DNA of 48,521 nucleotides, taken from an uncultured Candidatus Saccharibacteria bacterium. GTDB lineage: Bacteria > Patescibacteriota > Minisyncoccia > Phycocordibacterales > PALSA-1337. Shown here in pieces: positions 2,928-40,425 of this stretch. Below the pieces are notes generated by a model. The model ran no database searches, was not told the origin of the DNA, and was given only the letters and a program-made list of their open reading frames with translations. The DNA lies in assembly GCA_964403205.1 (NCBI GenBank), contig CAYOER010000004.1:1-48521 (forward strand). The letters are read 5' to 3'. Position 1 is the first letter of the stretch, and each line of letters opens with the position of its first letter. The position numbers and the translations under genes were made by a program.

Positions 2928-3083
2928 ATGTTCAATTGTATTGTTGTTTCTGCTAATCTAGTGAAAGTATTGATTAAAAATGAATTTTTTGCAACTCCCA
3001 AAATTTTATTGCCTTTTGTCAAATAATAGGTAATATTATGGCTAGAGCTTGAACATCTAACAAAAGAAAAGGAGAACCAAGTC

Positions 3084-12569: not shown

Positions 12570-12575
12570 TTGGTA

Positions 12576-19834: not shown

Positions 19835-20056
19835 AATTTTGTATTTATATAAATAAAGATTACTATTATTATTAGTCCTGTGGATATGTTGATAAATGGT
19901 TTATATGACTCGGTGTATGGTTATTTCTGAATCCTAAACTGTTAATAAATAAATAATAATTTTTCATATCTTTTTATTTTTATTTTCTAAATATTTTTTT
20001 ATGTTACTTTTTAACATTCTTTTAACAGTTTATTAACAATGTTATTCACAGTTTTT
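19835..20056. other. Putative oriC segment (DnaA boxes plus AT-rich unwinding region) in the dnaA-dnaN spacer
   Basis: DnaA-box-like 9-mers: ATATCCACA (minus strand, 19879-19887), TTATTAACA (20030-20038) and TTATTCACA (20042-20050). An almost pure A/T stretch lies between them (about 19940-20010). Confidence 0.5.
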
Positions 20057-21400: not shown

Positions 21401-21538
21401 TTTGATAAATCTCTTTGATAAAAATAAAAAATAATACTATCAGTATATACTTGTTTAAAAAATATCAAACTTGTGTAATGCGAATAAATATGTTGATAAC
21501 ATGTGGATTGTGTTAATATCTCTAAAAATATAAAAATC

Positions 21539-22057: not shown

Positions 22058-22798
22058 ATGTTTTCATATCTATACCATTCATTCATCTTTGACCCACTAT
22101 ATAATGGATTGATTTTTCTTATGGATTTTCTGCCATGGATAGATGCAGGTATGGCTATTGTTATATTCACTATCATAGTCAGACTCATACTATTTCCCCT
22201 TTCAAAGAAAGCCATAGTCACGCAGATAATGATGAAGAAAATAGAGCCAGAAATAAATAAGATAAAGAATAGTATGGTAAATGATCGCCAAGGTCAAGCT
22301 CTAAAGATGATGGCACTGTATAAAGAGAAAGGAATCAGCCCATTTTCAAGCTTTTTCTTTCTTTTGATACAATTACCCATTATTTTTGCTCTTTATTCAA
22401 TCTTTATAAATTCTGGATTACCAGATATTAATACATCTATTCTCTATAGTTTTATTAAAGAACCAATAGTAGATATGGATTTCCTCGGTATTGTCGATAT
22501 TGGTATGAAGAATATACCACTAGCCATAATTGCAGCTATTGCCCAGTTTGCACAGCTACACTACTCTGTCGGTATAAATAAGAATAAGAATGATGATAAA
22601 TCAATATCAAATCCAAAGAAAGAGATGAATCAAATGGATATAGCACAGAATATGACAAAAAATATGAAATATGTTTTTCCAGTGATTATCTTTGTAATAT
22701 CCTATCAATATGCTTCTGTTGTAGCTTTATATTTCATTGTTTCCAGTCTTTTCACTCTTGCTCAGGAACTATATGTGAAGAAAAAGCTATCTATTTAG
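22058..22798 (+). CDS. yidC: Membrane protein insertase YidC (short, Gram-positive-like form)
   Basis: Follows rnpA. A polytopic protein with the conserved PLSKK...Q...M..I.PE...IK and LY.....SPF motifs. Confidence 0.85.
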   Translation: MFSYLYHSFIFDPLYNGLIFLMDFLPWIDAGMAIVIFTIIVRLILFPLSKKAIVTQIMMKKIEPEINKIKNSMVNDRQGQALKMMALYKEKGISPFSSFFFLLIQLPIIFALYSIFINSGLPDINTSILYSFIKEPIVDMDFLGIVDIGMKNIPLAIIAAIAQFAQLHYSVGINKNKNDDKSISNPKKEMNQMDIAQNMTKNMKYVFPVIIFVISYQYASVVALYFIVSSLFTLAQELYVKKKLSI

Positions 22799-24043
22799 GT
22801 CCAGTGACCATAGATTAAGGTCGTTTTTATTAATAAAGTATAAGAAATCCTCTTTTGTATCTAGACCAATATCCGTTACATCTATAAGACTCTTTGAAAG
22901 TGTGAGTAGATCTGCTAATAGATGAACTTCTCCAGTATCTGTATTGAGATACCATATTTTATCAATAAATGAAATATTACCCTTATACCAATCATCAGGA
23001 TATACACCCTCTGGGAACTCTACCGGTACAGCACAATATATTTCATTTACTCTCAATTTACTCCATACACATTTATCAGCTAGAGTTTTGAATATTATTG
23101 ATTGTGAAGAATTATTCTTTACATTATATATGAAACTAGAGATATTCTTTGCATTACTACCTGCTGAAAATAGTATATTCTTTGCATCAGGACTTGCTTT
23201 TGCTGATAGACCTATGATTTGGCCTAACATTTTCTTTACCATTCCTGTCTTTATATCTATGAAATAGGAATATCCATAGGAATACCCAGAAGATTTTGTT
23301 GTTGCCATCAAGGTATTCTCTTCTGGCCAAGAAATATTTACCTGTGTTATGGGTGTATTCCAGATTTTCGTCTTTTTACTTTCATCAAATCCAGATACAT
23401 AGCCTATTCCTGTGCCATCTTCAAGATTGAAAGTGAATATTCTATCCCCTTTTGGTGATACAGCGACCTCTTTTATACTAGAAGAAATTATCCTACCTTT
23501 TGTTTGATATGGAGTTCTGTCTGTTGTTGATCCTGTATTTGTCGATACTTCTATTTTTCCATAGAGATTTGTGACTATATCTGTTCCCTCTTTTATATAT
23601 CTGAGTATTGTAGCATCTAGATTTTTATTCCAATATCCTTCATAGACTCTAGCTATTGTTGTATTGGATATTTTCTCTACAGACTCTCTATCACTCTTTG
23701 CTTCATAGATATGTCCTGTACCACGATCTATGTATCTTACTATAGTAGAGTCTACTGTAGAGCTCGCCATATACCCCGCTACTGGTTCCTGGCTTATACG
23801 TCTCAATATTGGCATCTCTACTATATTTTCTACTGGTACTTCTTCTTTAGTAGTTGTCGCTTTTTTTATAATAGGCTCATCTGTTTTAACTGTAGATCTA
23901 TTGAAAGGATTAAATCTCTGCACTAGTGTTGGTTCTGTATCGTCTGTATTTGTTTCTGTTGGTGTATCTGCTGTGAATAGCCAGAAGGCTATTCCGGCAG
24001 TGATGATGATTAGTATTATTAATATAATTAATATTTTTTTCAT
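22787..24043 (-). CDS. Hypothetical membrane-anchored extracytoplasmic protein (418 aa); last gene of the T4SS-like operon
   Basis: N-terminal TM helix followed by a beta-rich body. The gap to the upstream gene is 3 nt. Confidence 0.6.
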   Translation of the reverse strand: MKKILIILIILIIITAGIAFWLFTADTPTETNTDDTEPTLVQRFNPFNRSTVKTDEPIIKKATTTKEEVPVENIVEMPILRRISQEPVAGYMASSTVDSTIVRYIDRGTGHIYEAKSDRESVEKISNTTIARVYEGYWNKNLDATILRYIKEGTDIVTNLYGKIEVSTNTGSTTDRTPYQTKGRIISSSIKEVAVSPKGDRIFTFNLEDGTGIGYVSGFDESKKTKIWNTPITQVNISWPEENTLMATTKSSGYSYGYSYFIDIKTGMVKKMLGQIIGLSAKASPDAKNILFSAGSNAKNISSFIYNVKNNSSQSIIFKTLADKCVWSKLRVNEIYCAVPVEFPEGVYPDDWYKGNISFIDKIWYLNTDTGEVHLLADLLTLSKSLIDVTDIGLDTKEDFLYFINKNDLNLWSLDLNR

Positions 24044-24046
24044 GGA

Positions 24047-25195
24047 TTAGTTACTACTTTGTGGTGTATTTATACCTAATACTCCTTGTATTGCCTTTAC
24101 TCTCATCTCTTTTAATGTTTGATATTCTTTCATAAGCTCATTATCAGTTCTATATCCAGCTCCCAGACTATCAGGTTTTGAATAATCTTCTAAGTCTTTT
24201 TTTAAATTAGGTTCATAACGACTTCTCATTTCTGGATAGTCTTTATATTTAAGATAGGATATTATATCCTTAGCTATTCTCTGTTCTTCTTTAATTTGTT
24301 CAATATAGAAATTTTTTCTCATAGATACCATTGTTGCATTTTCATAATCATTCAAGGTTTTCAATTTATTTGCATATTCATCTAGTGAATTTATTTGATA
24401 TAGATAATCATCTAAAGCGATTTTACCAATATCTGTCAATTCCCCTAATTTACTTGTATTAGGGGAATCAGTTATATAGTTTCCTGGTTTACCTAGATAG
24501 ATTATTGCATCAGAAAAATTGTTTGATCCTCTATAAACAGCAAATATTTTTATAATTTTTGCTTCATTTCTTTTTAGCTCTGACTTGAATGATGCTAGAT
24601 TACTATCTTCTTCTGGAGTTAAACCCTCGTCCTCCTTTTTCTTTTCGAGGGCATCTATGCTTTTCTGAATGTCTATATTTAGGTTTTGTAAATTACTTAC
24701 TTCAGCTTTATTTACTTCATTTAATTTTTGTATATCTTCTCCTAATCGATCAATAAATTTATTTACATCACCTATATCCTTTATAGCTATCGGCGGTATA
24801 GTCGTATTTATCATTACCAATCTTGGATCTATTGTACGCAATATTAAATATGACACTAGAACCCCAGCAAGACCAAGAACTGCATTAGTAATTGTCGCTT
24901 TTCCATCCATCTTTTTTATTGGTGATTCACTTATTAGATATTGGAAACCACCCCAGATTATCATCACTACAGCGAGGAAGGCAGCTAGTGCTATGGAGAA
25001 TTTGAATACATAAGCTATATATGTATTTATATTTATTTTCGGTATCGTTTCTCCTGTTGTGCAGTTATTCCCTGTTCCCTCTATACATGGTAATGGCTCT
25101 AATAGAGTATATTCATCTGCTTTTACTATAGAGAAGCTAGTACTGAAGCTTATTATTAAAAACATTATTAAAATATAAAATATTTTATTTTTCAT
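24047..25195 (-). CDS. VirB2/TrbC-like T4SS pilin-domain protein with a long C-terminal coiled-coil extension (382 aa)
   Basis: Signal peptide, a Cys pair (LPCIEGTGNNC), then two hydrophobic helices (YIAYVFKFSIALAAFLAVVMIIWGGFQYL and ITNAVLGLAGVLVSYLILRTIDP). About 250 aa of charged, helical sequence follows. Confidence 0.5.
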   Translation of the reverse strand: MKNKIFYILIMFLIISFSTSFSIVKADEYTLLEPLPCIEGTGNNCTTGETIPKININTYIAYVFKFSIALAAFLAVVMIIWGGFQYLISESPIKKMDGKATITNAVLGLAGVLVSYLILRTIDPRLVMINTTIPPIAIKDIGDVNKFIDRLGEDIQKLNEVNKAEVSNLQNLNIDIQKSIDALEKKKEDEGLTPEEDSNLASFKSELKRNEAKIIKIFAVYRGSNNFSDAIIYLGKPGNYITDSPNTSKLGELTDIGKIALDDYLYQINSLDEYANKLKTLNDYENATMVSMRKNFYIEQIKEEQRIAKDIISYLKYKDYPEMRSRYEPNLKKDLEDYSKPDSLGAGYRTDNELMKEYQTLKEMRVKAIQGVLGINTPQSSN

Positions 25196-26180
25196 TTTTA
25201 TTGAAATTTAATCTGATACTTCTACTTGCTCCTTGTAATATATCATCCAGATTTCTTATTTCTAGATTTATAAGAGAGCTTCCACTGGTATCGCCTTTAG
25301 AGCGTAGTGTAATAGTCTGACTTCTGGAGAGATCTGGCTTCTCTAGATTATTAACACTCCATACATATGATAATGGTGAATTCTTATTATAAATATTGAA
25401 ATAATATGGTGCAGAGACTACATTGATCTCTTGGGCATTCAATGATTTATTTTCATTCAAAGCTTTATTATACAATATTCCATATACTGGATTTTCTTCA
25501 TAGAATATAATAGATGGATCTATTGGTTCTAGAGTTAAATATGCACTAGCTTTTTGAGATCCATTTTTTGTCTCTATTTCTACCTCCAATTCCAATGGTC
25601 TGGGTGTATCTTCTTTTATTATTACTGTCTGCTTTCCGTATCCATTTTGATCTTGCATTACTTTATCATTCTTTGTCCATTTATATACCAATGTTTTCGG
25701 ATCCAATTCCTTACCATTGCTACCTGCTATATGTGGTATTGCAGTGACTTTTATAGAATTTTGATAAGCAAATAATGATTTGCCTTTGAAAAAAGGTGGT
25801 GTATATCCTGCACTTTCCCAGACTATATCTACACTACTAGATTTTATTGTTACAGTCTTTCTTATTTCTTTACCCTCTGATGTCATTATCGCTATCACTA
25901 TATTTATATTTTTACCCATATCTGGGGCTAAAATATTTATAGATTTTATTCCTGTTCCCTGTTTATAATTCTTACCATCTACTATCCATACTATAGATGC
26001 AGAATTCAAATCTGTATTGTAGCTTTCTACTTTTATATTTACATTTTGTCCGGGATTGGGAATCTCTGGTGTAGAGGATATCTGTATTCCATCTATTGAA
26101 TTGGGAATTTGCGCATGAACTATAGATAATAGACTCAAAGATAGGAAAGTAATTATTATAGACTTTTGAAGAAATTTCAT
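25185..26180 (-). CDS. Hypothetical secreted protein (331 aa)
   Basis: Signal peptide (MKFLQKSIIITFLSLSLLSIVHA) and beta-rich, repeat-like sequence. Overlaps the downstream gene by 11 nt. Confidence 0.6.
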   Translation of the reverse strand: MKFLQKSIIITFLSLSLLSIVHAQIPNSIDGIQISSTPEIPNPGQNVNIKVESYNTDLNSASIVWIVDGKNYKQGTGIKSINILAPDMGKNINIVIAIMTSEGKEIRKTVTIKSSSVDIVWESAGYTPPFFKGKSLFAYQNSIKVTAIPHIAGSNGKELDPKTLVYKWTKNDKVMQDQNGYGKQTVIIKEDTPRPLELEVEIETKNGSQKASAYLTLEPIDPSIIFYEENPVYGILYNKALNENKSLNAQEINVVSAPYYFNIYNKNSPLSYVWSVNNLEKPDLSRSQTITLRSKGDTSGSSLINLEIRNLDDILQGASRSIRLNFNKNEK

Positions 26181-26584
26181 TGTTCTAATTCTACCATATT
26201 TTCTTTTCTTGGTAGACGTGTACCATCTTTATTTAATGGCATCTTTATATTCGGTTTTCTTATACCTGCGCTTGATTCTAGTGATATTCCAGTTTTATCC
26301 TCTATTCTAGAAAAGCCAATTATAAGCATGGTTGCTACTAATATTGATGGAAGTGCAGACAGAAAAGGTACAGACTCAATTACAATTGATGATACTCCAG
26401 AGATCAACCTTTTAATATTCAATAATCCATGACCAGTTTTCCACAGATACCCAGCCATAAATACCCAGAAAGCATCACCAATAAAAGGTATAACACTTAT
26501 AAAATCAGCTGTACCAGCTAATAATAACAGTATAAACGCCGAGAACCATCCAATTCTATATTTTTTCTTAACTTCTTCATTCAT
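26177..26584 (-). CDS. Hypothetical small polytopic membrane protein (135 aa)
   Basis: Three predicted TM helices. ATGA-type 4-nt overlap with the next gene. Confidence 0.55.
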   Translation of the reverse strand: MNEEVKKKYRIGWFSAFILLLLAGTADFISVIPFIGDAFWVFMAGYLWKTGHGLLNIKRLISGVSSIVIESVPFLSALPSILVATMLIIGFSRIEDKTGISLESSAGIRKPNIKMPLNKDGTRLPRKENMVELEQ

Positions 26585-26593
26585 TTTGTTTAT

Positions 26594-28405
26594 TTAGCCA
26601 CTCTTTTCTAGATCATCCTTTGCTTTTTTTATTGCTAGGACCTGGGCTGGATTTGTAGTTATTATCTGATCTTCTGTATAGGATGCTACTACCTTTATCG
26701 CAACATGTTTCAGTCCTACGAAGAATATTCCCTCCCCTATATCTGATTCCAATAACAGATATTTCTCTTCATCTGTGAGATTGAAGGTTTTCTGAATATT
26801 ATCTATAGATGTTGGGCTTTGTTTCAATAATATCTGTATAGAAGAGTTTGTAATAATAGGTAAACCATAAGGAGAATTGAGGAAATCATCTACATCCTGT
26901 GTAATAGTTGCTAACCCTAGATAATACTTCCTACCTCTCTTTGCTAGACTGAGTAGGAATGAAGCCGTATCTTCTGATTTCATCATCCACCATGCCTCAT
27001 CTATTACCAATAAACGCTTTTTCAATTCTTTTCTTATGGCATTCCATATATAATGAGTAACTATATACATTGCTACGGGTTTGAGCTCATCTTCCATATC
27101 TCTTAGGGAAAATACAACGAATTTCTTATTTATATCTACATTCGAAGGGCGATTTATAAACCCTGACCATGTACCCTTTGTATATTTACTGAGTCTTTCT
27201 ACTAGAGATTCTGCACCTTCCATACCAGCAAGTACTAGTTCAAAATCAGAAAGAAGTGGTGGTTCTACATGTCGGAAATCTGATTCTGCTGTTATATCTT
27301 TCAAAGCATATGTTTCTGTTATTGCTCTGTCTATTATCGCATCTTCTTCCTGGGATAGACCACCTAGCATAATACGGAAAAGTCCTACTAGATTTATAAT
27401 ATTTGAACGTAGAATATCTGATGCACTCTCATCTTCTCTAGGTATAGGTAGATCAAAAGGATTGATATGATGTTCAGAATTTAGAGAGATATTGAAATAT
27501 TTACCACCTGTTGCCTCTGCCATGTACTCATACTCTTTTTCTGGATCTATAACTATTACATCTGTATCGAACATGAGTGTTCGCAGTATTTCTAGCTTTA
27601 CATTGTAGCTTTTACCTGCCCCAGCTTTGGCAAAAGTGACAGAATTGTAGTTTTCTAAGAGAAATCTATCAAATAGTACTAGAGAAGAATTATGCCTATT
27701 GATACCGTATAGAATACCTTTATCAGATGTAAGATCAAAAGATACAAATGGGAAAAGTGATGATAGAGGTGAGGAATTCAATTTTGAATGAACCATAAGC
27801 TCATCATTTGCCATTGGTAATACACTTCTATAACCACTTTCTTGTTGGAATAATGCTGGTTTTATATATACTAATTTTGATTCCAATATTGATTTCACCT
27901 CACTCTCTGTTTTATCCAGTTCTGAATCAGAATTACCATATATTGTTATATATACTCCTACATCGAATATTTTCTCCTGTGCCTGCATCAGATTATCTCT
28001 TAGGGCTTCTAGATCCTGATATGCAGTATCTAATAGAGGATCTCTGACAAGTCCCTTCTCTTCCCTCTGTGTTATCTGACTCTGTACTTCTGCTACCTTC
28101 TTCCTGAAATGTCGCAATATCTTTGCTGTGTCTATAGGGTGTATAAAAATAGAAATATTGAAGACTTTATCTAGATTTACAATAGGAGCGAACCAGCTAT
28201 CAGATAGGAATCTAGGATAAGAAATAACAAAAAATGTTCTAGCTATTTTTTCCCCGAGATTTATTTCTTTTGGATTAATCTTCAATGCGGAAGGCGCGAT
28301 AATATCCTTTAGCTCCAATACTCCAGCTTCATAGATCTCCTGTGGTAGCATGGATACTATTTTCGGATCTTCTTTTTTACTAAATATTTTACTAAAAATT
28401 CCCAT
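26594..28405 (-). CDS. VirB4/TrbE-like type IV secretion ATPase
   Basis: Walker A (AKAGAGKSY), Walker B (LLVIDEAWWMM), and size and domain order typical of Gram-positive VirB4 homologues. Confidence 0.85.
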   Translation of the reverse strand: MGIFSKIFSKKEDPKIVSMLPQEIYEAGVLELKDIIAPSALKINPKEINLGEKIARTFFVISYPRFLSDSWFAPIVNLDKVFNISIFIHPIDTAKILRHFRKKVAEVQSQITQREEKGLVRDPLLDTAYQDLEALRDNLMQAQEKIFDVGVYITIYGNSDSELDKTESEVKSILESKLVYIKPALFQQESGYRSVLPMANDELMVHSKLNSSPLSSLFPFVSFDLTSDKGILYGINRHNSSLVLFDRFLLENYNSVTFAKAGAGKSYNVKLEILRTLMFDTDVIVIDPEKEYEYMAEATGGKYFNISLNSEHHINPFDLPIPREDESASDILRSNIINLVGLFRIMLGGLSQEEDAIIDRAITETYALKDITAESDFRHVEPPLLSDFELVLAGMEGAESLVERLSKYTKGTWSGFINRPSNVDINKKFVVFSLRDMEDELKPVAMYIVTHYIWNAIRKELKKRLLVIDEAWWMMKSEDTASFLLSLAKRGRKYYLGLATITQDVDDFLNSPYGLPIITNSSIQILLKQSPTSIDNIQKTFNLTDEEKYLLLESDIGEGIFFVGLKHVAIKVVASYTEDQIITTNPAQVLAIKKAKDDLEKSG

Positions 28406-28422
28406 ATTTATATTTTATTAAA

Positions 28423-29055
28423 TTAATTTATCTGTATTGGTTTCTCTGTTTCTCCGGGATTGAATATTTTATAATACAACTCTACCACCTCTTCTGTTCC
28501 TAGCTCGGCTACTCTGATACCACATCTTACTAGTCCCTGTTCTACTACACCGACTCTCTGTTCTAGCTGACTTCTGTATTCATTGAACTGTTCATTCGGT
28601 GTTATCTTGGGCCCTTCTCTTTTATTTACTAGATTACTGAGTGGATTGGAACTAGCAGACATAAGTGGAGGAGTATATGGTATGACCATGAAGAAACTTT
28701 TCGTCATTATATTGGAATTTTCTACAAAAGTTTTTATAAATTCTATATATTCTCTAGTTTGTATTTTCATCAGTTCAGTAACTTGCTCTTTATACCTTTC
28801 CTCCAGAAGGGCTATATATGGCCTTATATCGAGGTTTTTCGATTGTATGAAAATCTGTACAGAGAAATCCAATGAGTTTAGGAAATTTTGAAATTGAAAT
28901 ATAATAGAATTCTGTTCATCTGCACTTTTCAAAGCAAAATTTAGAGAAGATGCTAGAACTATGGCTCGCATAGAGCCATCTTTCAATATAACTACACCAT
29001 CACGGATTTCTTGTATTGGTACGAAGTCTTGTGTTGTTTTTTGTTCCTTTGCCAT
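28423..29055 (-). CDS. Hypothetical soluble protein (210 aa) between the PrgI-like and VirB4-like genes
   Basis: ORF in the operon with no gap to the upstream gene. No family recognised. Confidence 0.6.
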   Translation of the reverse strand: MAKEQKTTQDFVPIQEIRDGVVILKDGSMRAIVLASSLNFALKSADEQNSIIFQFQNFLNSLDFSVQIFIQSKNLDIRPYIALLEERYKEQVTELMKIQTREYIEFIKTFVENSNIMTKSFFMVIPYTPPLMSASSNPLSNLVNKREGPKITPNEQFNEYRSQLEQRVGVVEQGLVRCGIRVAELGTEEVVELYYKIFNPGETEKPIQIN

Positions 29056-29490
29056 TTATCTTTGGTTTTTATTTGTATACATACTCTCTTTGATATCTAG
29101 ACTCCATGTTAGATCTTTCAGTTTACTATCAGAAATTTTCGGTACCATAATTCCAGCATACTTTTTTATTTCCTCATCATCTTCACTCTGGATAACTTTC
29201 TGTTTACTTGATTTTCTCCATATATATAATTTATTTGAAAAGAAATACTTGAATGCTGCCTCTACTATATATATGAATGGGAATCTCTCATTTATTCTGT
29301 AGAATGATAATGCTGCTGAGAATGCCATCACTACTATTATCGGTATTATAGACCAGATAAATGATCCAATAACTCTGTATATAGCAAAGGATAGACCTGC
29401 CCCACCAGCCAAATATATGAATTGCTTTATAGTAAATTGGCCGAATATCTTATCCTCTACTTCTATGAACTGTGGTACTTGGAAACGCAT
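29056..29490 (-). CDS. PrgI/VirB3-like small membrane protein
   Basis: MRFQVPQFIEVEDKIFGQFTIKQFIYLAGGAGLSFAIY followed by a second TM helix. This is the PrgI-family pattern, and the gene sits upstream of VirB4. Confidence 0.6.
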   Translation of the reverse strand: MRFQVPQFIEVEDKIFGQFTIKQFIYLAGGAGLSFAIYRVIGSFIWSIIPIIVVMAFSAALSFYRINERFPFIYIVEAAFKYFFSNKLYIWRKSSKQKVIQSEDDEEIKKYAGIMVPKISDSKLKDLTWSLDIKESMYTNKNQR

Positions 29491-29505
29491 GCTTATATTA
29501 TAGCA

Positions 29506-30303
29506 TTATTCTACTGGTTCTCTGTACGGATCAGCTGTGTATTTTGTTGTTTCAGTCTTTCCCTCAGTTTTTATTTCAGTCTTAATATCACTTTTAATTT
29601 CTGTTTTGTTCTCTATCTTGGTTTCTGGTTTTATTTCTTTTCTTTGTTCAGGATTTGATATTGGTTTATTTAATAAATGATCAACAAAGTTCATTCCCTC
29701 TTTTGATCCGGTATGTTCATATTGTTCTATTTCTCGTAGTACTGTATCTCTATCTAGATTATTATCATTATATTGTGGTGAATGTGATGGTGGTCTTTTT
29801 TCTAATGTGAATTCGCCGACTCTTTCTATATCAGAAAGGTTTATATTTTTTGAAGGTGGGGGTGGTGGAACTGGTATAGGTGGAGTAAATACAGGTTTTG
29901 GAGGTGGAGGAGGAGTGGGTCTAGGGGGAATGGGTGGTGGCGTAAATGTGGGTTTTGGTGCGGGTGGTATAGGTTGAGGAGGGGTGGGTGGAGTAGGTGG
30001 GGGTGGAATCACCACAGTCCCTTCTTGCGTTTTTTGTAATAGCTCTCGTATTGGTATAAGTATCTCTTGATTTATATCAGATATAATATTGTTAGCTTTT
30101 TCATTATCAATTTCTAATCTATCTTTGAGATCATTCAGTAAATTTTTTGCTGATTTAAATCCAGTTACTACATCACGAATTTCCGCAGCAAGTTCCCCTT
30201 GTTCATCTATCATCAAACTATACTTCTCTCCAATCATTGTAATTTTATTATAAGTTTGATCAGAGAATGCAATTTGTTCTAATTGTTTTTGAAATTCATT
30301 CAT
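29506..30303 (-). CDS. Hypothetical proline-rich protein (265 aa)
   Basis: Central PPPPTPPTPPQPIPPAPKPTFTPPPIPPRPTPPPPPKPVFTPPIPVPPPPP tract and C-terminal K/T/E-rich short repeats (TEIKSDIKTEIKTEGKTE). Confidence 0.6.
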   Translation of the reverse strand: MNEFQKQLEQIAFSDQTYNKITMIGEKYSLMIDEQGELAAEIRDVVTGFKSAKNLLNDLKDRLEIDNEKANNIISDINQEILIPIRELLQKTQEGTVVIPPPPTPPTPPQPIPPAPKPTFTPPPIPPRPTPPPPPKPVFTPPIPVPPPPPSKNINLSDIERVGEFTLEKRPPSHSPQYNDNNLDRDTVLREIEQYEHTGSKEGMNFVDHLLNKPISNPEQRKEIKPETKIENKTEIKSDIKTEIKTEGKTETTKYTADPYREPVE

Positions 30304-30307
30304 AATT

Positions 30308-32152
30308 TTATGTCCATAATGTTCTATTTTTATTTATATAATCATAAGCTGGATGATTTGCTCCATAGACTTTTTTCCAATTATCTATTGCCGTACCTAT
30401 CATGCGTCTTGATGTATCATCAAGACCCTCCATGTCTTTAAGTTGACTTGGTTTTATATGCTCGATGAACTCTGGTTTTATTGCTGCACCAGAAGGTCTT
30501 TCAGATATAATTTTCTCTAAATCATTACCACTCATATTTTTCATGATACTTCTGACTTTTGTATAATCTTCTGGTGTAGCTGTTCCGCTCGCTATTTTAT
30601 CAACGACATCCCCGAGCGCTTTTGTTCTAGCTTGTCCTATTTCAACTTTATCTTTATCAGATTTATCTCCCTTTTCGATGCTTGAATAGATTGAACTTGA
30701 TAAATGAGATACTATGTTTTCATTTGTAAGATGTTTCTTTGTATCAAGACTAGCGATTTCACTATTTGACATACTACTTAATATTCTCTTTATCTCGCTA
30801 TTATTTCCAGTCGATATAGCTCTATCAAGATTTTCAATATTACTAATTTCTCTTCCCTTTTTCTTAATCTCTTTTCCTAATTTTTCATCATCTTTTCTTG
30901 AAGTTGATCCACCAAATTTTAAATTAGCGAGTTTTGTTGTTGTCATATCTCTAACAGCACGTCCCATCATATTATTTCCTCCTTTTGTCCCCTCAAAATA
31001 TTTATCGAGTTTTGAACCTGCCCATCCAACCGTATTTTTCCCAGCAAATCCCCCCACCTTTCCTCCCAACCACTTACCAATTCCCCCTGCCTGTGGTGCC
31101 CATTTCATACCCATTCCGCCTAGCTCTATCGCTGCTACTAAAGGTAGATTGATAAAGAATAAAGCTATTGTATATTGAATAATAACTCCTATAAAAGTAG
31201 AACTGAGAACTCCTCCGCCAGTTATTCCAGTTGCATTTTGATTGAAAATATTCATGAATCCACTATCACTTATTATTCTCAATGATACATACATGAGAAA
31301 CAAGTATACAGGCATGAAGACACACTGACTATATAAAGCGTCAGATAATTTTTTAGTTTTTGCTTTTATTTCTGGAAAAATCATTCCTACGAAGAATAGA
31401 GGAGATAGCGCCATCACAAAAAGAAGTATTGCTGTACGGGCTGTGAAGGCAATACCAGCAGCAAGAAAGGAAAGCCCTGCAGTGATCATAACTAGAATTC
31501 CTCCAATCATTGCAAATCCTATACCAGCTGCAACATCTGTTCCTTTCAAGGCGTCTTTACTTTCATATATTTTAGGTATTTTCAAACTTTGCATAAATAC
31601 ATTTGAAAGACCACCATCATTTATAGCTTGGCTCACAGTCCAATTCTGAGAAGTCTCTGGAGCTATTGCCTCATAGAACTGTAAAGAAATTATATTTGAT
31701 GCATCTATAGCTACTCTGACGAAAAATAGACTGAAGTTTATGAGTACACCCGCAAGAAATATTTTTATTATAAGTTCATTAAGACTATTTCCACCTCTAC
31801 CTATTATTGTTTTTATAGAAAAATAAAGTAAGGCAAATATTATGAATATACTAGATAGATCTCTTATAACGATCCAGACGGATTTAATTCCTGTAACAGT
31901 CTCATATATCATACCTATATGAGTAGTTATATTAATAGATATACTGAGAAATGCTCCAGTTATAGCTACGAACCATGATGATGCTGCTAGGAAGAAATTT
32001 GCTCCATTTGCTATTGCAGAATTTACAGCACTTTGTGCTATATTTCCAATACCAAGGAAATCACCAATTGCCATTACTTTATTTGGAAACATCATATACC
32101 CCACTATGAGTATCATCGCCATTATCTGTATTGTTCTTGTCTTTTTATTCAT
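30308..32152 (-). CDS. VirB6/TrbL-like polytopic membrane protein with a C-terminal hydrophilic domain (614 aa)
   Basis: Signal or anchor sequence, at least 6 TM helices over about 380 aa, then a soluble tail of about 230 aa. Its position in the operon matches VirB6 analogues. Confidence 0.55.
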   Translation of the reverse strand: MNKKTRTIQIMAMILIVGYMMFPNKVMAIGDFLGIGNIAQSAVNSAIANGANFFLAASSWFVAITGAFLSISINITTHIGMIYETVTGIKSVWIVIRDLSSIFIIFALLYFSIKTIIGRGGNSLNELIIKIFLAGVLINFSLFFVRVAIDASNIISLQFYEAIAPETSQNWTVSQAINDGGLSNVFMQSLKIPKIYESKDALKGTDVAAGIGFAMIGGILVMITAGLSFLAAGIAFTARTAILLFVMALSPLFFVGMIFPEIKAKTKKLSDALYSQCVFMPVYLFLMYVSLRIISDSGFMNIFNQNATGITGGGVLSSTFIGVIIQYTIALFFINLPLVAAIELGGMGMKWAPQAGGIGKWLGGKVGGFAGKNTVGWAGSKLDKYFEGTKGGNNMMGRAVRDMTTTKLANLKFGGSTSRKDDEKLGKEIKKKGREISNIENLDRAISTGNNSEIKRILSSMSNSEIASLDTKKHLTNENIVSHLSSSIYSSIEKGDKSDKDKVEIGQARTKALGDVVDKIASGTATPEDYTKVRSIMKNMSGNDLEKIISERPSGAAIKPEFIEHIKPSQLKDMEGLDDTSRRMIGTAIDNWKKVYGANHPAYDYINKNRTLWT

Positions 32153-32155
32153 ATA

Positions 32156-33754
32156 TTAATATGCTCCATCTGGGAATAATTGACATGCTTGTGATCTTCT
32201 CTGTGCATCTTGTACCATTGGTTCTATTGTCGTTTTTATGGTTTCTAATTCCTGACCAGAATCCATCATATCTTTTGCTGATACAAGAGTTCTTTCTTGC
32301 AACATTTGTGCATATGCTTGGCTTGGTTCATTTATCTCGTTTACCGTTCTAGCTGCATTTGCTCTTGTCTTTATACCTAATAAGGTTTGATATTTGCCAT
32401 CTGCTTGTCGAGCTTCTTCCAATAGTCTTGTTGCAAGAGGAGTTATATCCCTACTTATTATAGAATCTATTTCGGCTATTTTAGCCTGTGCTCTACTAGG
32501 ATCTAATGATATTTTATTTTCATAACATACTTTTACTATTCCATATGCAGTTTTTACATCCAAGACTAGATTTAATGATTGATCTTTATTACTCTTATAT
32601 TGAATAGTATTATCTAGATATGTTGTAAGATTTTTTATAAGCTCTGCTCTTATAGAATTCAATTGTTCAATACTTCCATTACCTTCATTTTGAATTTGAT
32701 AAATATATGATGAAGAATCACTAGGATTACTACCACTCACACCACCTAGACCCTTTGAGAGTATCTGTGTTACTAGCTGAGCAAAGAGTGCATTTACTAT
32801 TTCATTTAGCTCATCTGCAAGCTGAAGTTCATGTAAAGGTCCATTTACATTTGCTTCTAGGGCACCCTGTATGACAGATCCTGGTGTCTGTATTTCACAT
32901 TTTTCTTTTGTTTGATTCACATGTTCTATTGGAGCATTTGATTCTGTTCTATTTGGATCACTATTATCCCCCATTTCATGATCTATATATGCTGTATCAG
33001 ATGTTTGTAATGTTGTATCTCCGACTTGTTTACATTTCTTCCATGATAAGAATCCCCTACCTTGATTGAGCTCATCTTTTTGTTGGGCTTGGGCATTTGC
33101 TACTCGTATAGAAAGTTCACTTTCTGCGGTGAGATATGCTCCATAGATATTATTCTGAGGTTCTGTGGTTAGGGAAATAAATGCTGGCCAGCCACCCTGT
33201 CGGAAGTCCCCAGCCGTGAATCCATTTATATTTGCACCTTCTATTGCATTTTTACTATTTTTTATAATAGTACCGAGTGTACAAGCATATCTTTTATTTA
33301 CATTTGGATGATATCGGAATGCCAGAGCGATACGTATATCTATACTAAATGGTGAACAGAGAGCAGTTAGTGGTCCACCCACCTTAGCAAGGAAGTCCCC
33401 AGTAATCTGATCTGCAACATCTAGGAAGAATGAACCTGGATTTGTAATAAAAGATGGACTACCTTCAAAACCAGAATTTATCCAGTTTACTACACTGGAT
33501 GTTATTTGGCGGATTATTACCTTTGCTAGTCCTGAAGCGATAGGGTCTAGGACATATTCCTTATATTCAGTTGAATAAGATGAAAACGAAGAAGCAGTAG
33601 TATTTATTGCAGTTATAGTAGACTGGAATATATTACCGGCATCGACGACTGGTATTGCTCTAGCTTTATTTGGAAAAGCAAAAATAATAGAAGAAAAAAC
33701 TATTACTATAAGAAATACTACGGAAATTATTTTTTTAATATTAAATATTTTCAT
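32156..33754 (-). CDS. Hypothetical secreted protein (532 aa)
   Basis: N-terminal signal or anchor sequence (IISVVFLIVIVFSSIIFAFPNKARA). No family recognised. Confidence 0.6.
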   Translation of the reverse strand: MKIFNIKKIISVVFLIVIVFSSIIFAFPNKARAIPVVDAGNIFQSTITAINTTASSFSSYSTEYKEYVLDPIASGLAKVIIRQITSSVVNWINSGFEGSPSFITNPGSFFLDVADQITGDFLAKVGGPLTALCSPFSIDIRIALAFRYHPNVNKRYACTLGTIIKNSKNAIEGANINGFTAGDFRQGGWPAFISLTTEPQNNIYGAYLTAESELSIRVANAQAQQKDELNQGRGFLSWKKCKQVGDTTLQTSDTAYIDHEMGDNSDPNRTESNAPIEHVNQTKEKCEIQTPGSVIQGALEANVNGPLHELQLADELNEIVNALFAQLVTQILSKGLGGVSGSNPSDSSSYIYQIQNEGNGSIEQLNSIRAELIKNLTTYLDNTIQYKSNKDQSLNLVLDVKTAYGIVKVCYENKISLDPSRAQAKIAEIDSIISRDITPLATRLLEEARQADGKYQTLLGIKTRANAARTVNEINEPSQAYAQMLQERTLVSAKDMMDSGQELETIKTTIEPMVQDAQRRSQACQLFPDGAY

Positions 33755-33757
33755 TTA

Positions 33758-34741
33758 TTATTGTGGTATGAAAAACCTCCCTGCTTCTCCATCTGTATAT
33801 ATTATGCCAGAAGTATTGAAATAATTCTTCAAATTGTTTAGGGCAGTGTTTAGGTTCTTTGCCCCATCTAGATATTTGCTGACACCCTGTAGTCCTGCTA
33901 CTGGATCCGTTTCTACTTTTCGGAGTGATTCTGCAGAAAACAATATTTCACTTAAGCTATTTATTATACTTAAATGAATATTATTCATTGTTTTTGGCGC
34001 ATCTATTTTTATTAATGCAGAAATCATATTTTTATAGCTAGCTATTATTGGATCTATTTCTTCTAAAATTTTGAAATCCTCTTTTTCTATTGCTTCCTTA
34101 GCTATGATAGCCTCACTTCTCGAATTAGGTAAAATATATTTTTGGAAAATAGCTCCTGCTTCATTGCCGTATTTCTTTATTGTTACTGGACTAGTATCTG
34201 TAATTATTTTTATATCTGTTAGACTATATTTCTTTGGACTATCTAAGACTAGACCACTCTTCAATGCTTGGCTCGCTACTTCATCTTGACTCTGTTTATC
34301 CCCAGAGAGTCCTATCTGTTTCAATTCCATATATCTTGCAAAGAAGTCCCTAGCTAGTCTATCTGTACTTGTGAGATTGCTCTGACCACTACTTGTATTT
34401 ACAGAAACTGTATCCCCTTCTTTATCTTTTGGTCCTTTTATTAATGGATTCCTATTAGAATTCGCCTCTACGCCATCAACAGTTCCATCTCCATCTGTGT
34501 CTTTATTATTAGGATCTGTACCGAGTAGAATCTCTTCCCAATCCTTCAATCCATCATCATCACTATCTTTTAGCTGTGTATCTGCTGGTATACTTTCTAC
34601 TTTATCAGATACTGTGGTTGTAGAATCATATACTAGATTATCACTATTCTTATTTCTGTATTCTGCCAAGATGAAAACTACTCCTATGATTAACAAGGCG
34701 AATACTATCAAAGCTATGTTTTTTAGGCTCGATTGCTTCAT
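33758..34741 (-). CDS. Membrane-anchored protein with thrombospondin type 3-like calcium-binding repeats (327 aa); first gene of the operon
   Basis: TM anchor followed by DSDDDGLKDWEEILLGTDPNNKDTDGDGTVDG. Confidence 0.6.
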   Translation of the reverse strand: MKQSSLKNIALIVFALLIIGVVFILAEYRNKNSDNLVYDSTTTVSDKVESIPADTQLKDSDDDGLKDWEEILLGTDPNNKDTDGDGTVDGVEANSNRNPLIKGPKDKEGDTVSVNTSSGQSNLTSTDRLARDFFARYMELKQIGLSGDKQSQDEVASQALKSGLVLDSPKKYSLTDIKIITDTSPVTIKKYGNEAGAIFQKYILPNSRSEAIIAKEAIEKEDFKILEEIDPIIASYKNMISALIKIDAPKTMNNIHLSIINSLSEILFSAESLRKVETDPVAGLQGVSKYLDGAKNLNTALNNLKNYFNTSGIIYTDGEAGRFFIPQ

Positions 34742-34755
34742 TGATAGCCATGATA

Positions 34756-34764
34756 ATTATATCA
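34756..34764 (-). promoter_or_regulatory. Extended -10 promoter of the T4SS-like operon
   Basis: The minus strand reads TGATATAAT, 14 nt upstream of the ATG at 34741, inside the 33-nt gap after rsmA. Confidence 0.5.
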
Positions 34765-34774
34765 GAGAAATGCT

Positions 34775-35590
34775 TTATAGACTTGATTTTTTATCTATTT
34801 CTGTGGACAACATTATCTTCTTCCAATTATCTAGTTTCATTTCCTCTGCTCTTATTGTTATTAGCCATTTTTCTCTATTCCAAATCTCCTTCAAAGTTTC
34901 ACTTTCTATGACTTTTTCTAAATTTTTTATTAAAACTTTTCTTTTATGGGCAAAACCAGCTTTTATTATTTCAAAAAATCTATTTTCTTGCACTTTATTA
35001 TCAATAAAGAATTTTTTTGATATATTTTCTATAGAAAGTACAGCAGAATCTACATTGGGTACAGGTCGGAAGAATTTCCTAGGTACAGAAACTATATATT
35101 TAGGATTTCCATAAACTTTTATAGACATTCCTATTATGCTACCCTTCTCATCTACTATCCTTTTTGCTAGCTCTTTCTGAAGCATTATGACTATTCTAGA
35201 TGGCTGTATATCTGATTCTAGGAATTTTCTCAATAATTCTCCGCTTATATAATACGGTATATTTGCTATTATTTTATATTTATTATTCTCAAGATTTAAT
35301 GAAGAAATATCAATATTTAATACATCTCCATGAATAATCTTCAACTGCCCAGACATAATCTCATTTTTGAATTTCTCTTCCAATATTGGTATAGCCCTAT
35401 CATCTTTTTCTATTGCTATGACTTTTGTTCCAGTTTTGAGCAAAGCAATTGTCAATACACCATTTCCAGGGCCTATTTCAAGGATAATATCAGAATCTAC
35501 TATATTTCCAGCATGTATCATCGCCCCTATGACTTGAGGTGCATGTATGAAATTTTGTCCCAATGATTTCTTTGCTATAAGTTTTTCCAT
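34775..35590 (-). CDS. rsmA: 16S rRNA (adenine1518/1519-N6)-dimethyltransferase
   Basis: KKSLGQNFI start motif and SAM-binding LEIGPGNGVLT. Confidence 0.9.
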   Translation of the reverse strand: MEKLIAKKSLGQNFIHAPQVIGAMIHAGNIVDSDIILEIGPGNGVLTIALLKTGTKVIAIEKDDRAIPILEEKFKNEIMSGQLKIIHGDVLNIDISSLNLENNKYKIIANIPYYISGELLRKFLESDIQPSRIVIMLQKELAKRIVDEKGSIIGMSIKVYGNPKYIVSVPRKFFRPVPNVDSAVLSIENISKKFFIDNKVQENRFFEIIKAGFAHKRKVLIKNLEKVIESETLKEIWNREKWLITIRAEEMKLDNWKKIMLSTEIDKKSSL

Positions 35591-37680: not shown

Positions 37681-37813
37681 TCGGCTACCCTATATAAGTA
37701 TCCTAAAAATAGGGATATAAATATGGCTTAGCAGAGCCATATACAGCAAACACTGATTGCAGACGGACTCTAGAAAAGAGTCTTACAGATCTTGCCGAAA
37801 GACTATTTATATT
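37681..37813 (+). promoter_or_regulatory. Structured 5' leader of the LysM-M23 peptidase gene (class unknown)
   Basis: Candidate closing helix TCGGC/GCCGA (37681-37685 / 37793-37797) encloses three hairpins: 37699-37717, ATATGGCT/AGCCATAT at 37721-37742, and GGACTCT/AGAGTCT at 37765-37783. A competing hairpin AGTCTT/AAGACT (37779-37804) lies next to the ATG. Confidence 0.3.
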
Positions 37814-38893
37814 ATGAAATATTACAGTCATAACTTCTCAATACAAAGACGATCATATAAGAACTTCCAGATCAAGGCGGCACTTTTCATTTTGTCTATA
37901 CTAGTTACAATTTCATTATTTTTTATATATCCAAGGACTGTAAAAGCAGGCCTTTTTTCATCTATTTTCAATGTAACTACAGATGAGGTATCTGCGAAGA
38001 CTTATGATGATCAATATATACCAAATTCACAGAATATGATTGTTCTAAAGGCTGTTGTAAATGTTGATCCGAATCCAGAAAAATCATCAAATAATATAGT
38101 TCTTGCTAGAGATAATGCATTTATGGCAGAAATAGGTCCTTCTGGCTCTATACAGGATATAGATAATCAAGTAAATACGAAAATTAGTCTGTATGTCGTA
38201 AGAGAGGGTGATTCCCTATCAGAGATTGCGGAACTTTTTGACGTTTCTGTAAATACTATTCTTTGGGCCAATAATCTAGATAGAAAATCTAAAATACAAG
38301 AAGGCCAAACACTTATTATCCTTCCTATATCTGGTATCCGCCATACAGTGAAGAAAGGAGAAACAATAAAAGGTATAGTTACAAAGTATAAAGCAGATCT
38401 AAATGAAGTTCTAGTATATAACGATCTATCTTTAGATTCTACAATAAAAGAAGGAGATACTATAACAGTTCCAGATGCAGAACCTACAGCTCTACAAACA
38501 GCAATAACTTCTAAAACAAAGTCAAATACTAGTGTAGGTCCTTCTTATCTTGGATATTATATGAGACCAATAAGTGGAGGAAGGAAATCCCAAGGTTTAC
38601 ATGGACATAACGGTATAGATTTTGCCGCACCTATAGGAACTCCTATACATGCTTCTGCTTCCGGTACTGTGATAGCTAGTATGACAGGTGGATGGAATGG
38701 TGGTTATGGTAATTATGTTATTATTTCACATCCAAATGGTACACAAACTCTGTATTCTCATAACTCAGTAAACCTAGTGGTAGTCGGACAGAAAGTCGAT
38801 AAGGGAGACACTATTGCAAAAATAGGTATAACAGGAAAAGTTACAGGTCCACATGTTCACTTCGAAGTTCGTGGTGCAAAGAATCCTTTCTAG
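37814..38893 (+). CDS. LysM-domain M23 family metallopeptidase (cell wall hydrolase)
   Basis: TM anchor, two LysM repeats (YVVREGDSLSEIAELF..., HTVKKGETIKGIVTKY...), and M23 motifs HNGIDFAAP and GPHVHFEV. The ATG at 37814 lies inside the longer TTG-initiated ORF in the track. Confidence 0.85.
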   Translation: MKYYSHNFSIQRRSYKNFQIKAALFILSILVTISLFFIYPRTVKAGLFSSIFNVTTDEVSAKTYDDQYIPNSQNMIVLKAVVNVDPNPEKSSNNIVLARDNAFMAEIGPSGSIQDIDNQVNTKISLYVVREGDSLSEIAELFDVSVNTILWANNLDRKSKIQEGQTLIILPISGIRHTVKKGETIKGIVTKYKADLNEVLVYNDLSLDSTIKEGDTITVPDAEPTALQTAITSKTKSNTSVGPSYLGYYMRPISGGRKSQGLHGHNGIDFAAPIGTPIHASASGTVIASMTGGWNGGYGNYVIISHPNGTQTLYSHNSVNLVVVGQKVDKGDTIAKIGITGKVTGPHVHFEVRGAKNPF

Positions 38894-40419: not shown

Positions 40420-40425
40420 ATACAC

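Follow-up and report, generated by a model that had tools for sequence, protein, structure and literature searches.

An eleven-gene cluster beside dnaA in a Paceibacteria-like groundwater bacterium resembles the Patescibacteria type IV secretion system

The 48,521-nucleotide stretch analyzed here (GenBank assembly GCA_964403205.1, contig CAYOER010000004.1, positions 1 to 48,521 of the forward strand; hereafter the window) comes from a Paceibacteria-like member of the Patescibacteria, also called the candidate phyla radiation (CPR), an ultrasmall groundwater bacterium. The minus strand of the window carries a cluster of eleven genes, g1 to g11, which we interpret as the form that the Patescibacteria-clade type IV secretion system (T4SS) takes in the Paceibacteria. 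This machine would descend from the monoderm conjugation systems of mating pair formation type FATA (MPF-FATA) and would have lost the DNA-processing parts. We estimate the probability of this reading at about 0.85. T4SS ancestry was found in five genes, namely g7 (VirB4), g6 (a detached N-terminal domain of VirB4), g5 (PrgI/VirB3), g3 (VirB6-like) and g10 (T4SS_pilin domain). The initial annotation, made from the sequence of the window, had listed four such genes and had missed g6. The window and the retrieved flanks of its contig showed no relaxase, type IV coupling protein (T4CP) or integrase, the synteny of the cluster is fixed, and the motor is under strong purifying selection.

The existence of this T4SS, its composition, its missing DNA-transfer parts and its position near the origin have already been published, in 2023 and 2025. 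In Southlakia epibionticum, the T4SS cluster SEML1_0006-0019 lies beside the genome start and is essential to growth as an epibiont (Wang et al. 2023, Cell, PMC10633639). The cluster is similar to the T4SSs that Gram-positive bacteria use in conjugation, and it has essential pilins and no recognisable coupling or relaxase proteins (PMC10633639). In a survey of 3,035 genomes, 2,425 VirB4 proteins made up a clade of Patescibacteria within MPF-FATA (Quinonero-Coronel et al. 2025, Microb Genom, PMC12102498). According to this survey, genes for TrsD, PrgI/VirB3, VirB6 and PF18895/VirB2-like pilins occur near virB4 in the Patescibacteria. Relaxases are nearly absent, VirD4 homologs are present in most genomes and lie mostly far from virB4, and the T4SS locus of the Paceibacteria is located near dnaA, dnaN, rnpA, ksgA and rpmH (PMC12102498). 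To these descriptions the window adds a Paceibacteria example with the tiling of VirB4 by g6 and g7, the predicted propeller of g11, the variable adhesin and hydrolase domains in orthologs of g2 and g10, multiple -10 boxes of the leaderless type and a DnaA-box-like site upstream of g1.

Results

Organization of the cluster and its core genes

The eleven genes are tightly packed, as the initial annotation had described. Their open reading frames (ORFs), numbered in the order of transcription, run head to tail from 34741 down to 22787 with gaps of 0-17 nt and overlaps of 4 and 11 nt, and all of them are intact. The last gene, g11, overlaps the end of the convergent yidC by 12 nt, and rnpA, dnaA and dnaN lie further on this side. 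On the upstream side, rsmA (34775-35590, same strand) is separated from g1 by 33 nt and is followed by a gene for a UvrD/PcrA helicase. The G+C content of the cluster (0.30-0.35) is that of the flanks, in agreement with the earlier description. The five genes with T4SS ancestry are as follows.

26594..28405, minus strand: g7, 603 aa, VirB4 ATPase of the monoderm CD1110/MPF-FATA type (Pfam, NCBIfam and PDB matches)
28423..29055, minus strand: g6, 210 aa, TrsD-like cytoplasmic protein corresponding to the N-terminal domain of VirB4 as a gene of its own (NCBIfam, BLASTP)
29056..29490, minus strand: g5, 144 aa, PrgI/VirB3-like membrane hairpin protein, assigned as the anchor of VirB4 (PF12666 match)
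30308..32152, minus strand: g3, 614 aa, extended VirB6-like polytopic membrane protein (transmembrane scan, profile matches of orthologs)
24047..25195, minus strand: g10, 382 aa, signal peptide, VirB2-like T4SS_pilin domain with two transmembrane (TM) helices (aa 56-120) and a 260-aa helical C-terminal extension (PF18895)

The VirB4 motor and the membrane platform

The assignment of g7 as a VirB4-like ATPase was borne out. Its Walker A motif GAGKS is found at aa 262-266 (27608-27622) and its Walker B motif DEAW at aa 469-472 (26990-27001), the latter being kept in all 79 of 79 VirB4 orthologs. Pfam matches were obtained to P-loop_TraG (6e-26), AAA_10 and DUF87. Profile matches in the PDB include the C-terminal domain of VirB4 (4ag5, 2.7e-40) and TrwK. 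Against the NCBIfam model conju_CD1110 ("VirB4-like conjugal transfer ATPase, CD1110 family"), g7 scored 372.7 bits (cutoff 325), with the match covering only positions 178-733 of the 752 positions of the profile.

The N-terminal part that g7 lacks is matched by g6, which covers positions 1-117 of conju_CD1110. The product of g6, in which the TM scan showed no TM segment, also matches VirB4_plasma, the model for VirB4 of mycoplasma integrative and conjugative elements (ICEs), over profile positions 99-233 (2.2e-11), as well as TrsD (1.9e-7); these scores fall under the curated cutoffs, which were set for whole proteins. In BLASTP, g6 was aligned with residues 20-197 of a 797-aa VirB4 encoded on a Clostridium botulinum plasmid (E 2e-7), and g7 was aligned with the later part of the same protein. 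Since g7 lacks the N-terminus of the profile and g6 matches that part, the two proteins jointly tile a full-length plasmid VirB4. They make up a split VirB4, an arrangement known as TrsD plus TrsE.

The PrgI/VirB3-like assignment of g5, which the initial annotation had also made, passed the profile check with 37 bits against PF12666 PrgI (E 4.9e-9, cutoff 27). The hydrophobic stretch of g5 spans aa ~24-64. For g3, about seven TM segments were found in aa 1-350, and the C-terminal half is hydrophilic and coiled-coil. Pfam TrbL was matched by 7 of 60 orthologs of g3 (best 6e-5), and other orthologs match NCBIfam families of polytopic conjugation proteins, namely CD3337/EF1877 (7), pLS20_p028 (2), Mbov_0396 (2) and MMCAP2_0566 (1). 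The position of g3 is similar to that of VirB6 on a clostridial plasmid: g3 lies upstream of prgI with g4 in between, and the plasmid VirB6 gene directly precedes PrgI. An hhalign comparison of the g3 family with one clostridial CD1112 VirB6 was not significant, a tblastn search of 72,556 plasmids with g3 gave no match, and the precomputed PF19590 tags of g3 homologs were not reproduced at E <= 0.01. The VirB6-like assignment of g3 is made for the family only, on the strength of these ortholog profiles.

The pilin-domain protein

The T4SS_pilin model PF18895 was matched by 56 of 59 orthologs of g10 (best 2.2e-11). When the window was searched with a hidden Markov model (HMM) built from the pilin domains of the orthologs, g10 was the only pilin-domain ORF, and no second gene was found. 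The C-terminal part of g10 is variable among species, and single orthologs carry an SLT transglycosylase domain or an M15 peptidase domain there. A search of PDB profiles with g10 gave no pilin; its extension was matched to TraC/VirB5 at E 0.25. We also considered whether g10 is a canonical small VirB2/TrbC pilin of ~100-120 aa. This assignment was rejected: g10 is 382 aa long, and PF04956 was matched by only 2 of 59 orthologs (E 0.009).

Conservation among relatives and the question of mobility

Relatives of the cluster were collected by a pattern and tblastn scan of one genome per GTDB species. At least 570 species had a relative of the VirB4 protein, and the best 80 were taken. All 80 are metagenome-assembled genomes (MAGs) of Patescibacteria/CPR, labelled Paceibacterota, Parcubacteria, Taylorbacteria or Zambryskibacteria, with some auto-labelled Saccharibacteria. 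The gene order pcrA-rsmA-g1..g11-yidC-rnpA-dnaA is kept in the 80 loci wherever the contig extends that far. The identity of VirB4 to the window protein is 78-92% across the 80 species. The median identities to the window proteins across the related genomes are as follows.

VirB4 (g7): 82%
TrsD (g6): 66.5%
DnaA: 61.5%
PcrA: 57%
PrgI (g5): 54%
RsmA: 47%
YidC: 46%
envelope proteins: 30-38%

The combination of a strongly constrained cytoplasmic motor with fast-evolving surface parts suggests an old and vertically inherited core function. By comparison, the plasmid VirB4 proteins (2907 records among the 72,556 plasmids) are at most 35% identical to g7. By this difference, 78-92% to Patescibacteria MAGs versus <=35% to plasmid records, g7 fits well into the Patescibacteria clade, which is a statement of similarity, not of phylogeny.

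Hallmarks of mobile elements were searched for in the window and in its flanks, for which we used parts of the 60,584-bp source contig from a groundwater metagenome (ENA ERZ909576 k127_265744), with called genes and precomputed Pfam hits. In the Pfam scan of window ORFs with 100 aa or more, which did not include a small number of short ORFs within the first 2.1 kb, no relaxase, VirD4/TcpA, VirB11 or integrase was found. The precomputed Pfam hits of the retrieved flanks of this 60.6-kb contig likewise included no relaxase, VirD4, VirB11 or integrase. The absence of these genes from the operon, claimed by the initial annotation, therefore held in the Pfam scans of both the window and the flanks.

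These results bear on the possibility that the cluster is the transfer module of an ICE, ordinary or decayed, which was inserted near dnaA by chance. The genes for VirB4, PrgI, TrsD and the VirB6-like protein are indeed homologous to monoderm conjugation genes, and the core order is as on a clostridial plasmid. Such an element would, however, have to lack its relaxase, VirD4 and integrase, to occupy an identical insertion context in 80 species at the G+C content of the flanks, and to have kept all 11 ORFs intact with a VirB4 conserved above DnaA. The published VirB4 phylogeny, in addition, indicates class-wise vertical descent (PMC12102498). The absence of the hallmarks from the window and the retrieved flanks, together with the constant site, largely refutes the ICE reading, which we regard as very improbable. 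The cluster is most probably a vertically inherited chromosomal core machine. The initial proposal of a domesticated, non-conjugative surface or secretion machine of an episymbiont is supported by the absence of the hallmarks, the synteny in 80 species and the conservation of VirB4.

Accessory and envelope proteins

The remaining six genes of the cluster are as follows.

33758..34741, minus strand: g1, 327 aa, N-terminal membrane anchor, thrombospondin type 3 (TSP3) Ca-binding repeats (aa ~49-100) and a conserved C-terminal domain (PF18884)
32156..33754, minus strand: g2, 532 aa, signal or anchor sequence, conserved Cys-containing N-terminal domain (aa ~65-340) and C-terminal helical bundle (prediction)
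29506..30303, minus strand: g4, 265 aa, proline-rich (16% Pro), no signal peptide and no TM segment in the TM scan
26177..26584, minus strand: g8, 135 aa, small membrane protein with 2-4 TM segments (TM scan)
25185..26180, minus strand: g9, 331 aa, secreted beta-rich protein with a signal peptide, syntenic in 77 loci
22787..24043, minus strand: g11, 418 aa, N-terminal TM anchor, disordered linker (aa 27-65) and extracytoplasmic 7-bladed beta-propeller (AlphaFold2 and Foldseek)

The initial annotation had counted seven secreted or membrane-anchored proteins without a recognisable family. This count has to be revised: g6 is a cytoplasmic TrsD homolog, and g4 has neither a signal peptide nor a TM segment. 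The repeats noted in g1 did correspond to a family, TSP3_bac (PF18884), with 29.4 bits against a cutoff of 25, and weak matches to the repeats of CglD/MtsD were also found. The single TM segment of g1 is at aa 8-26; the gene is syntenic in 52 loci with a median identity of 30%. Neither g4 nor g8 matched a family in Pfam or NCBIfam. Both are variable in sequence: g4 was detected in only 24 loci, and g8 was found in 18 loci and is absent from some relatives, several loci having just ~45-60 nt between virB4 and g9.

Structure prediction was informative for g11. The AlphaFold2 model has a mean predicted local distance difference test (pLDDT) score of 88, reaching ~95 in the propeller, and its Foldseek matches included, at E 4e-11 to 1e-8, propellers of the WD40 and TolB types. 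On the basis of this model, g11 is a predicted membrane-anchored beta-propeller. Its 1083 homologs are all unannotated. The published survey left the accessory proteins g1, g2, g9 and g11 unannotated (PMC12102498), and the predicted anchored propeller is thus an addition for one of them.

The model of g2 was poor by comparison, being confident only at aa 360-525, with pLDDT 35-60 over the conserved N-terminal domain. A Foldseek search of the PDB with this model gave only generic helical bundles, none of them significant (E > 0.03), and g2 had no match in Pfam or in the tblastn search of the 72,556 plasmids. The N-terminus of g2 weakly matches TrbJ over ~60 aa (E 0.0014), and its homologs carry DUF4141 over aa ~21-50. 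Orthologs of g2 append F5/8-type-C, Ig-like or PKD domains. We regard g2 as a candidate surface or tip adhesin, and its relation to VirB5/TrbJ as a weak lead.

The protein g9 probably consists of tandem Ig-like domains. Its orthologs show weak matches to Ig_3, BiPBP_C and PKD, and the g9 profile weakly matches the Ig-like domains of Hoc (E 0.01). PDB profile searches of g2, g3, g9 and g10 returned coiled-coil or Ig-like noise only. The variable domains in the orthologs of g10 and g2 indicate that the surface parts exchange modules between species.

Promoters and a DnaA-box-like site

The candidate regulatory elements of the cluster are as follows.

34756..34764, minus strand: P1, extended -10 element TGATATAAT, 14 nt before the ATG of g1, giving a very short leader
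29497..29505, minus strand: P2, perfect internal extended -10 element TGCTATAAT, in the 15-nt gap between g4 and g5, 6 nt before the ATG of g5, with leaderless-type geometry
34802..34810, minus strand: DnaA-box-like motif TTGTCCACA, 40 nt upstream of the -10 hexamer of g1 and inside the 3' end of rsmA, with one mismatch to TTATCCACA

The initial annotation had placed the operon behind a single promoter. The element in question, P1, is present and conserved: of 50 orthologous loci, 64% have the pattern TGnTAnA[AC]T no more than 30 nt upstream of g1, versus 0.4% in the background, and it is kept even where a gene other than rsmA precedes g1. It is not the only such element, since P2 precedes g5 and -10 boxes precede g9, g8 and g6. 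A TATAAT-like box starting at -20..-9 is present before g5 in 69% of loci (72 loci), before g9 in 55%, before g8 in 53% and before g6 in 39%, versus 2.4% in the background. A scan with consensus promoter and terminator models gave little information, as it found fewer promoter-like sites than in shuffled sequence and no minus-strand terminator within the cluster.

In many genes of the window, a TATAAT begins 12-16 nt ahead of the start codon and a Shine-Dalgarno motif is lacking, for example those at 6858 (ftsE), 8305 (pilB), 29490 (g5), 42244 (a 427-aa ORF) and 45367 (trmB). Shine-Dalgarno motifs are absent across the window except in a foreign GC-rich island described below. These facts suggest that leaderless mRNAs are widespread in the source organism and that transcription starts at several points inside the cluster. 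Expression of the cluster appears to start from several -10 promoters of the leaderless type, located before g1, before g5 and probably before g9.

In about half of the related genomes, an extra variable gene is present between rsmA and g1. Such inserts encode, for example, a Gly-rich secreted 334-aa protein (locus L011:2678-3682) and a 550-aa polytopic membrane protein (locus L075:1604-3256). The presence of these variable genes suggests that the conserved module starts at g1.

The pattern NTNTCC[AC]CA, on the strand of g1 and within 110 nt upstream of it, was found in 17 of 51 loci versus 1.5% of random 110-nt windows. It is present also where a different gene precedes g1, and it tends to lie about 21, 30 or 40 nt from the -10 box. 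The motif TTGTCCACA may therefore be a regulatory site through which DnaA controls the T4SS cluster.

Two readings in our analysis go beyond the published descriptions, and both are rather unlikely at present. One is the regulation by DnaA of a leaderless cluster with multiple promoters. The other is that g2 is a VirB5-like tip adhesin determining host specificity, an idea suggested by its TrbJ/DUF4141-like N-terminus together with the exchange of C-terminal lectin, Ig or PKD domains among its orthologs.

Neighbouring genes

A gene for a possible wall hydrolase lies outside the cluster.

37757..38893, plus strand: gene for a LysM + M23 peptidase, opposite in strand to the cluster and 3 kb upstream of it, syntenic in the 9 loci with a flank long enough

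The initial annotation had stated that the operon lacks a dedicated cell wall hydrolase. This is true of the eleven genes themselves; the peptidase gene 3 kb upstream qualifies the statement. VirB1-like proteins with M23 or LysM domains do occur in the Patescibacteria (PMC12102498). It is possible that the peptidase is a stand-in for the missing VirB1-type hydrolase, or it may be a plain housekeeping enzyme; its membership in the cluster is uncertain.

The location in the core chromosome between yidC and rsmA, as described initially, is confirmed by the neighbours yidC, rnpA, dnaA and dnaN on one side and rsmA and pcrA on the other. The proximity to oriC, which formed part of the same description, can be derived from the gene content (dnaA and dnaN) only, because DnaA boxes show no enrichment over the whole window (18 boxes of the E. 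coli type were found versus 15.4 expected) and the GC skew is non-classical. The cumulative GC skew in the region of 12-22 kb has a peak near 18-19 kb and no minimum there, a pattern unlike that of a classical origin. Three near-consensus DnaA boxes lie in the spacer between dnaA and dnaN (19879-20050) and one lies upstream of dnaA (21491-21499). The genes on both sides of dnaA point towards it.

Several other genes of the window were noted. A PilB-type type IV pilus ATPase (T2SSE + MshEN; 8305-9984, plus strand), ComM (38890-40425, minus strand) and polynucleotide phosphorylase (PNPase; 42258-44138, minus strand) are all encoded within 15 kb of the cluster; in recent work on Patescibacteria, the functions of these proteins have been tied to adhesion or competence and to RNA catabolism. 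Two proteins with a BRO-N domain, which is typical of antirepressor-like proteins of phages and viruses, are encoded at 12570-13448 (plus strand) and 46144-46968 (minus strand) amid otherwise housekeeping genes. An island of ~6.5 kb with purD, purN and purL has a G+C content of 46-52%, versus 33-35% for the genome. It occupies 2235-4376 of the window and extends to the left on the source contig (L084:8552-14711). Shine-Dalgarno motifs are present at purD and at the adjacent 154-aa ORF, unlike in the rest of the window. The island is probably a horizontally acquired set for purine synthesis in a phylum mostly without nucleotide synthesis.

Discussion

Comparison with known systems

The features that the cluster shares with the Patescibacteria-clade T4SS are a VirB4 of MPF-FATA descent with a TrsD homolog next to it, PrgI/VirB3 and a PF18895 pilin domain, to which a VirB6-like protein can be added at the level of the ortholog family. 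The absence of a relaxase and a T4CP from the cluster, and the chromosomal site beside dnaA, dnaN, rnpA and ksgA (rsmA), which is the Paceibacteria pattern, are shared as well. The T4SS of the Saccharimonadia differs from the present cluster in having tandem small divergent pilins and genes for a peptidase and a lysozyme downstream of virB4, whereas the present cluster has a single 382-aa pilin-domain protein and no hydrolase.

The conjugation systems of monoderm MPF-FATA type (CTn2/CD1110-type; pGO1 with TrsD/TrsE; pCF10 with PrgH-PrgI-PrgJ) are similar to the cluster in the VirB4 that passes the CD1110 cutoff, in PrgI and in the TrsD-like protein. The core order VirB6-PrgI-x-VirB4 is likewise that of a clostridial conjugative module, the VirD4 and SLT hydrolase of which are lacking here. 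In contrast to these systems, no VirD4, relaxase, SLT/CHAP hydrolase (VirB1/PrgK) or VirB8-like protein (PrgL) was recognised in the cluster, and g2 and g3 have no plasmid homolog detectable by tblastn. The cluster is chromosomally fixed, its VirB4 is at most 35% identical to theirs, and it has a VirB2-like pilin domain, which they lack.

The importers ComB and Ced and the exporters Ptl and Brucella VirB resemble the cluster in that a VirB4-type motor is combined with membrane or pilus parts for a non-conjugative function. Past VirB4, no specific homology to these systems was found; they work in diderm or archaeal envelopes and have known substrates.

Points against the proposed assignment

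Several points weigh against our interpretation of the cluster as a Patescibacteria-clade T4SS. The window copy of g3 matched no VirB6/TrbL model in the Pfam and NCBIfam profile searches, and the window copy of g10 scored 25.4 bits against PF18895 (E 1.6e-5), 1.2 under the cutoff of 26.6. The VirB6/TrbL-like and pilin-domain assignments of the initial annotation are accordingly confirmed only in part, by way of the orthologs. Neither a VirB8-like nor a VirB1-like component could be recognised among the eleven genes. The 80 loci were picked as the best VirB4 matches, which mildly inflates the identity of VirB4 relative to that of the other genes, even though the gap is still large. The absence of a coupling protein from the retrieved parts of the contig need not extend to the genome; a distant VirD4 homolog may exist, and recruitment of substrates by a T4CP is possible. 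The promoters are known as sequence motifs only. Finally, the function in the Paceibacteria is argued by homology, and the evidence for essentiality comes from another class, the Saccharimonadia, whose cluster has a different gene arrangement with tandem small pilins where one 382-aa pilin-domain protein is present here.

Possible mechanism and transport function

The mechanism with the best support is a VirB4-driven apparatus that spans the envelope, has a surface structure based on pilin as well as adhesin-like accessory proteins, and would serve in host contact and macromolecule traffic. The VirB4 ATPase g7 would work together with its detached N-terminal domain g6, and the two would dock on a membrane platform of g5 (PrgI/VirB3) and the extended VirB6-like g3. 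Hydrolysis of ATP would then drive the extraction of the pilin-domain protein g10 from the membrane to build a tube or fibre across the wall. The parts that span the wall and contact the host would be g1 with its Ca-binding TSP3 repeats, the adhesin-like g2, the Ig-like g9 and the anchored propeller g11. This structure would touch the host cell and form a conduit for macromolecules between epibiont and host, without conjugative transfer of the epibiont's own DNA. The envelope part of this scheme is consistent with the signal peptides or anchors of the accessory proteins, with their propeller, Ig-like and TSP3 folds, and with the variable lectin and Ig domains of the orthologs. We infer the direction of transport, the substrate and the roles of g1, g2, g4, g8, g9 and g11. 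A 2025 FEMS review has likewise speculated that the T4SS and its pilus form a conduit through which material is exchanged with the host or taken up from it (PMC12857230). In a 2026 preprint, tubular structures that reach the host, and which may be T4SS pili, were observed by cryo-electron microscopy at the host interface of a cultivated Microgenomatia parasite (bioRxiv 10.64898/2026.06.21.733656).

What such an apparatus carries can be interpreted in more than one way. ComB of H. pylori and archaeal Ced consist of a VirB4-type ATPase, membrane parts and a pilus-like part, with no relaxase or T4CP in the cluster. The composition of the present cluster, likewise without relaxase or T4CP, resembles theirs, and it is possible, if doubtful, that the machine is a reversed system of this type that imports DNA or other nucleic acids as a nucleotide supply for a cell largely without nucleotide synthesis. 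The genes comM and pnp and the gene for the type IV pilus ATPase are nearby, and g7 weakly matches CedB with an E value of 1.4e-8; the score of 33.8 bits, however, is far under the cutoff of 700, and no CedA-like or ComB-specific parts were identified. The cultivated relative of the preprint takes up host RNA and shows putative T4SS tubes, but the route of uptake was explicitly left unresolved by its authors (bioRxiv 10.64898/2026.06.21.733656). In S. epibionticum, deletion of comEC ends competence and leaves viability unaffected, while the T4SS is still essential (PMC12857230). The essential role of the T4SS is therefore not natural transformation.

About equally tentative is the proposal that protein effectors are exported into or onto the host, being recruited without a coupling protein encoded in the cluster, as in Bordetella Ptl or Brucella VirB. 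Protein-secreting T4SSs without a T4CP exist (PMC12102498, PMC12857230), and Wang et al. suggested protein export or an alternative role for the S. epibionticum system (PMC10633639). One might speculate that g4, which is proline-rich, lacks a signal peptide and is encoded inside the cluster, is a substrate. Against export, no effector or secretion signal was identified, and no toxin-like domain was found in or beside the cluster. The extreme conservation of VirB4 is uninformative on the direction of transport.

It is also conceivable, with a lower probability than either import or export, that the T4SS core was kept solely to assemble a surface fibre that holds the epibiont, without passage of any substrate. 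In canonical systems VirB4 is an ATPase of pilus biogenesis (PMC12102498). The conserved pilin domain, the adhesin- or wall-protein-like accessory genes and the variation of the lectin and Ig domains of orthologs would fit such a device. Adhesion in the Patescibacteria is, however, already provided by type IV pili, for which the window has a PilB-type ATPase. The pilin-domain protein, with 382 aa and a long extension, is unlike the polymerising VirB2 pilins, and the retention of a VirB6-like channel protein argues for translocation. We favour the conduit at the host contact described above over a fibre for adhesion only.

Biological significance

A large part of bacterial diversity belongs to the Patescibacteria, whose cells live attached to other microbes. 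The means by which they obtain resources from these hosts are an open question. The T4SS is among their most conserved machines, and a homologous cluster is essential for growth on the host in the sole genetically tractable relative. If the regulation by DnaA proposed here is true, the replication initiator would couple the expression of a host-contact machine to the cell cycle or the nutrient status in cells that are poor in regulators.

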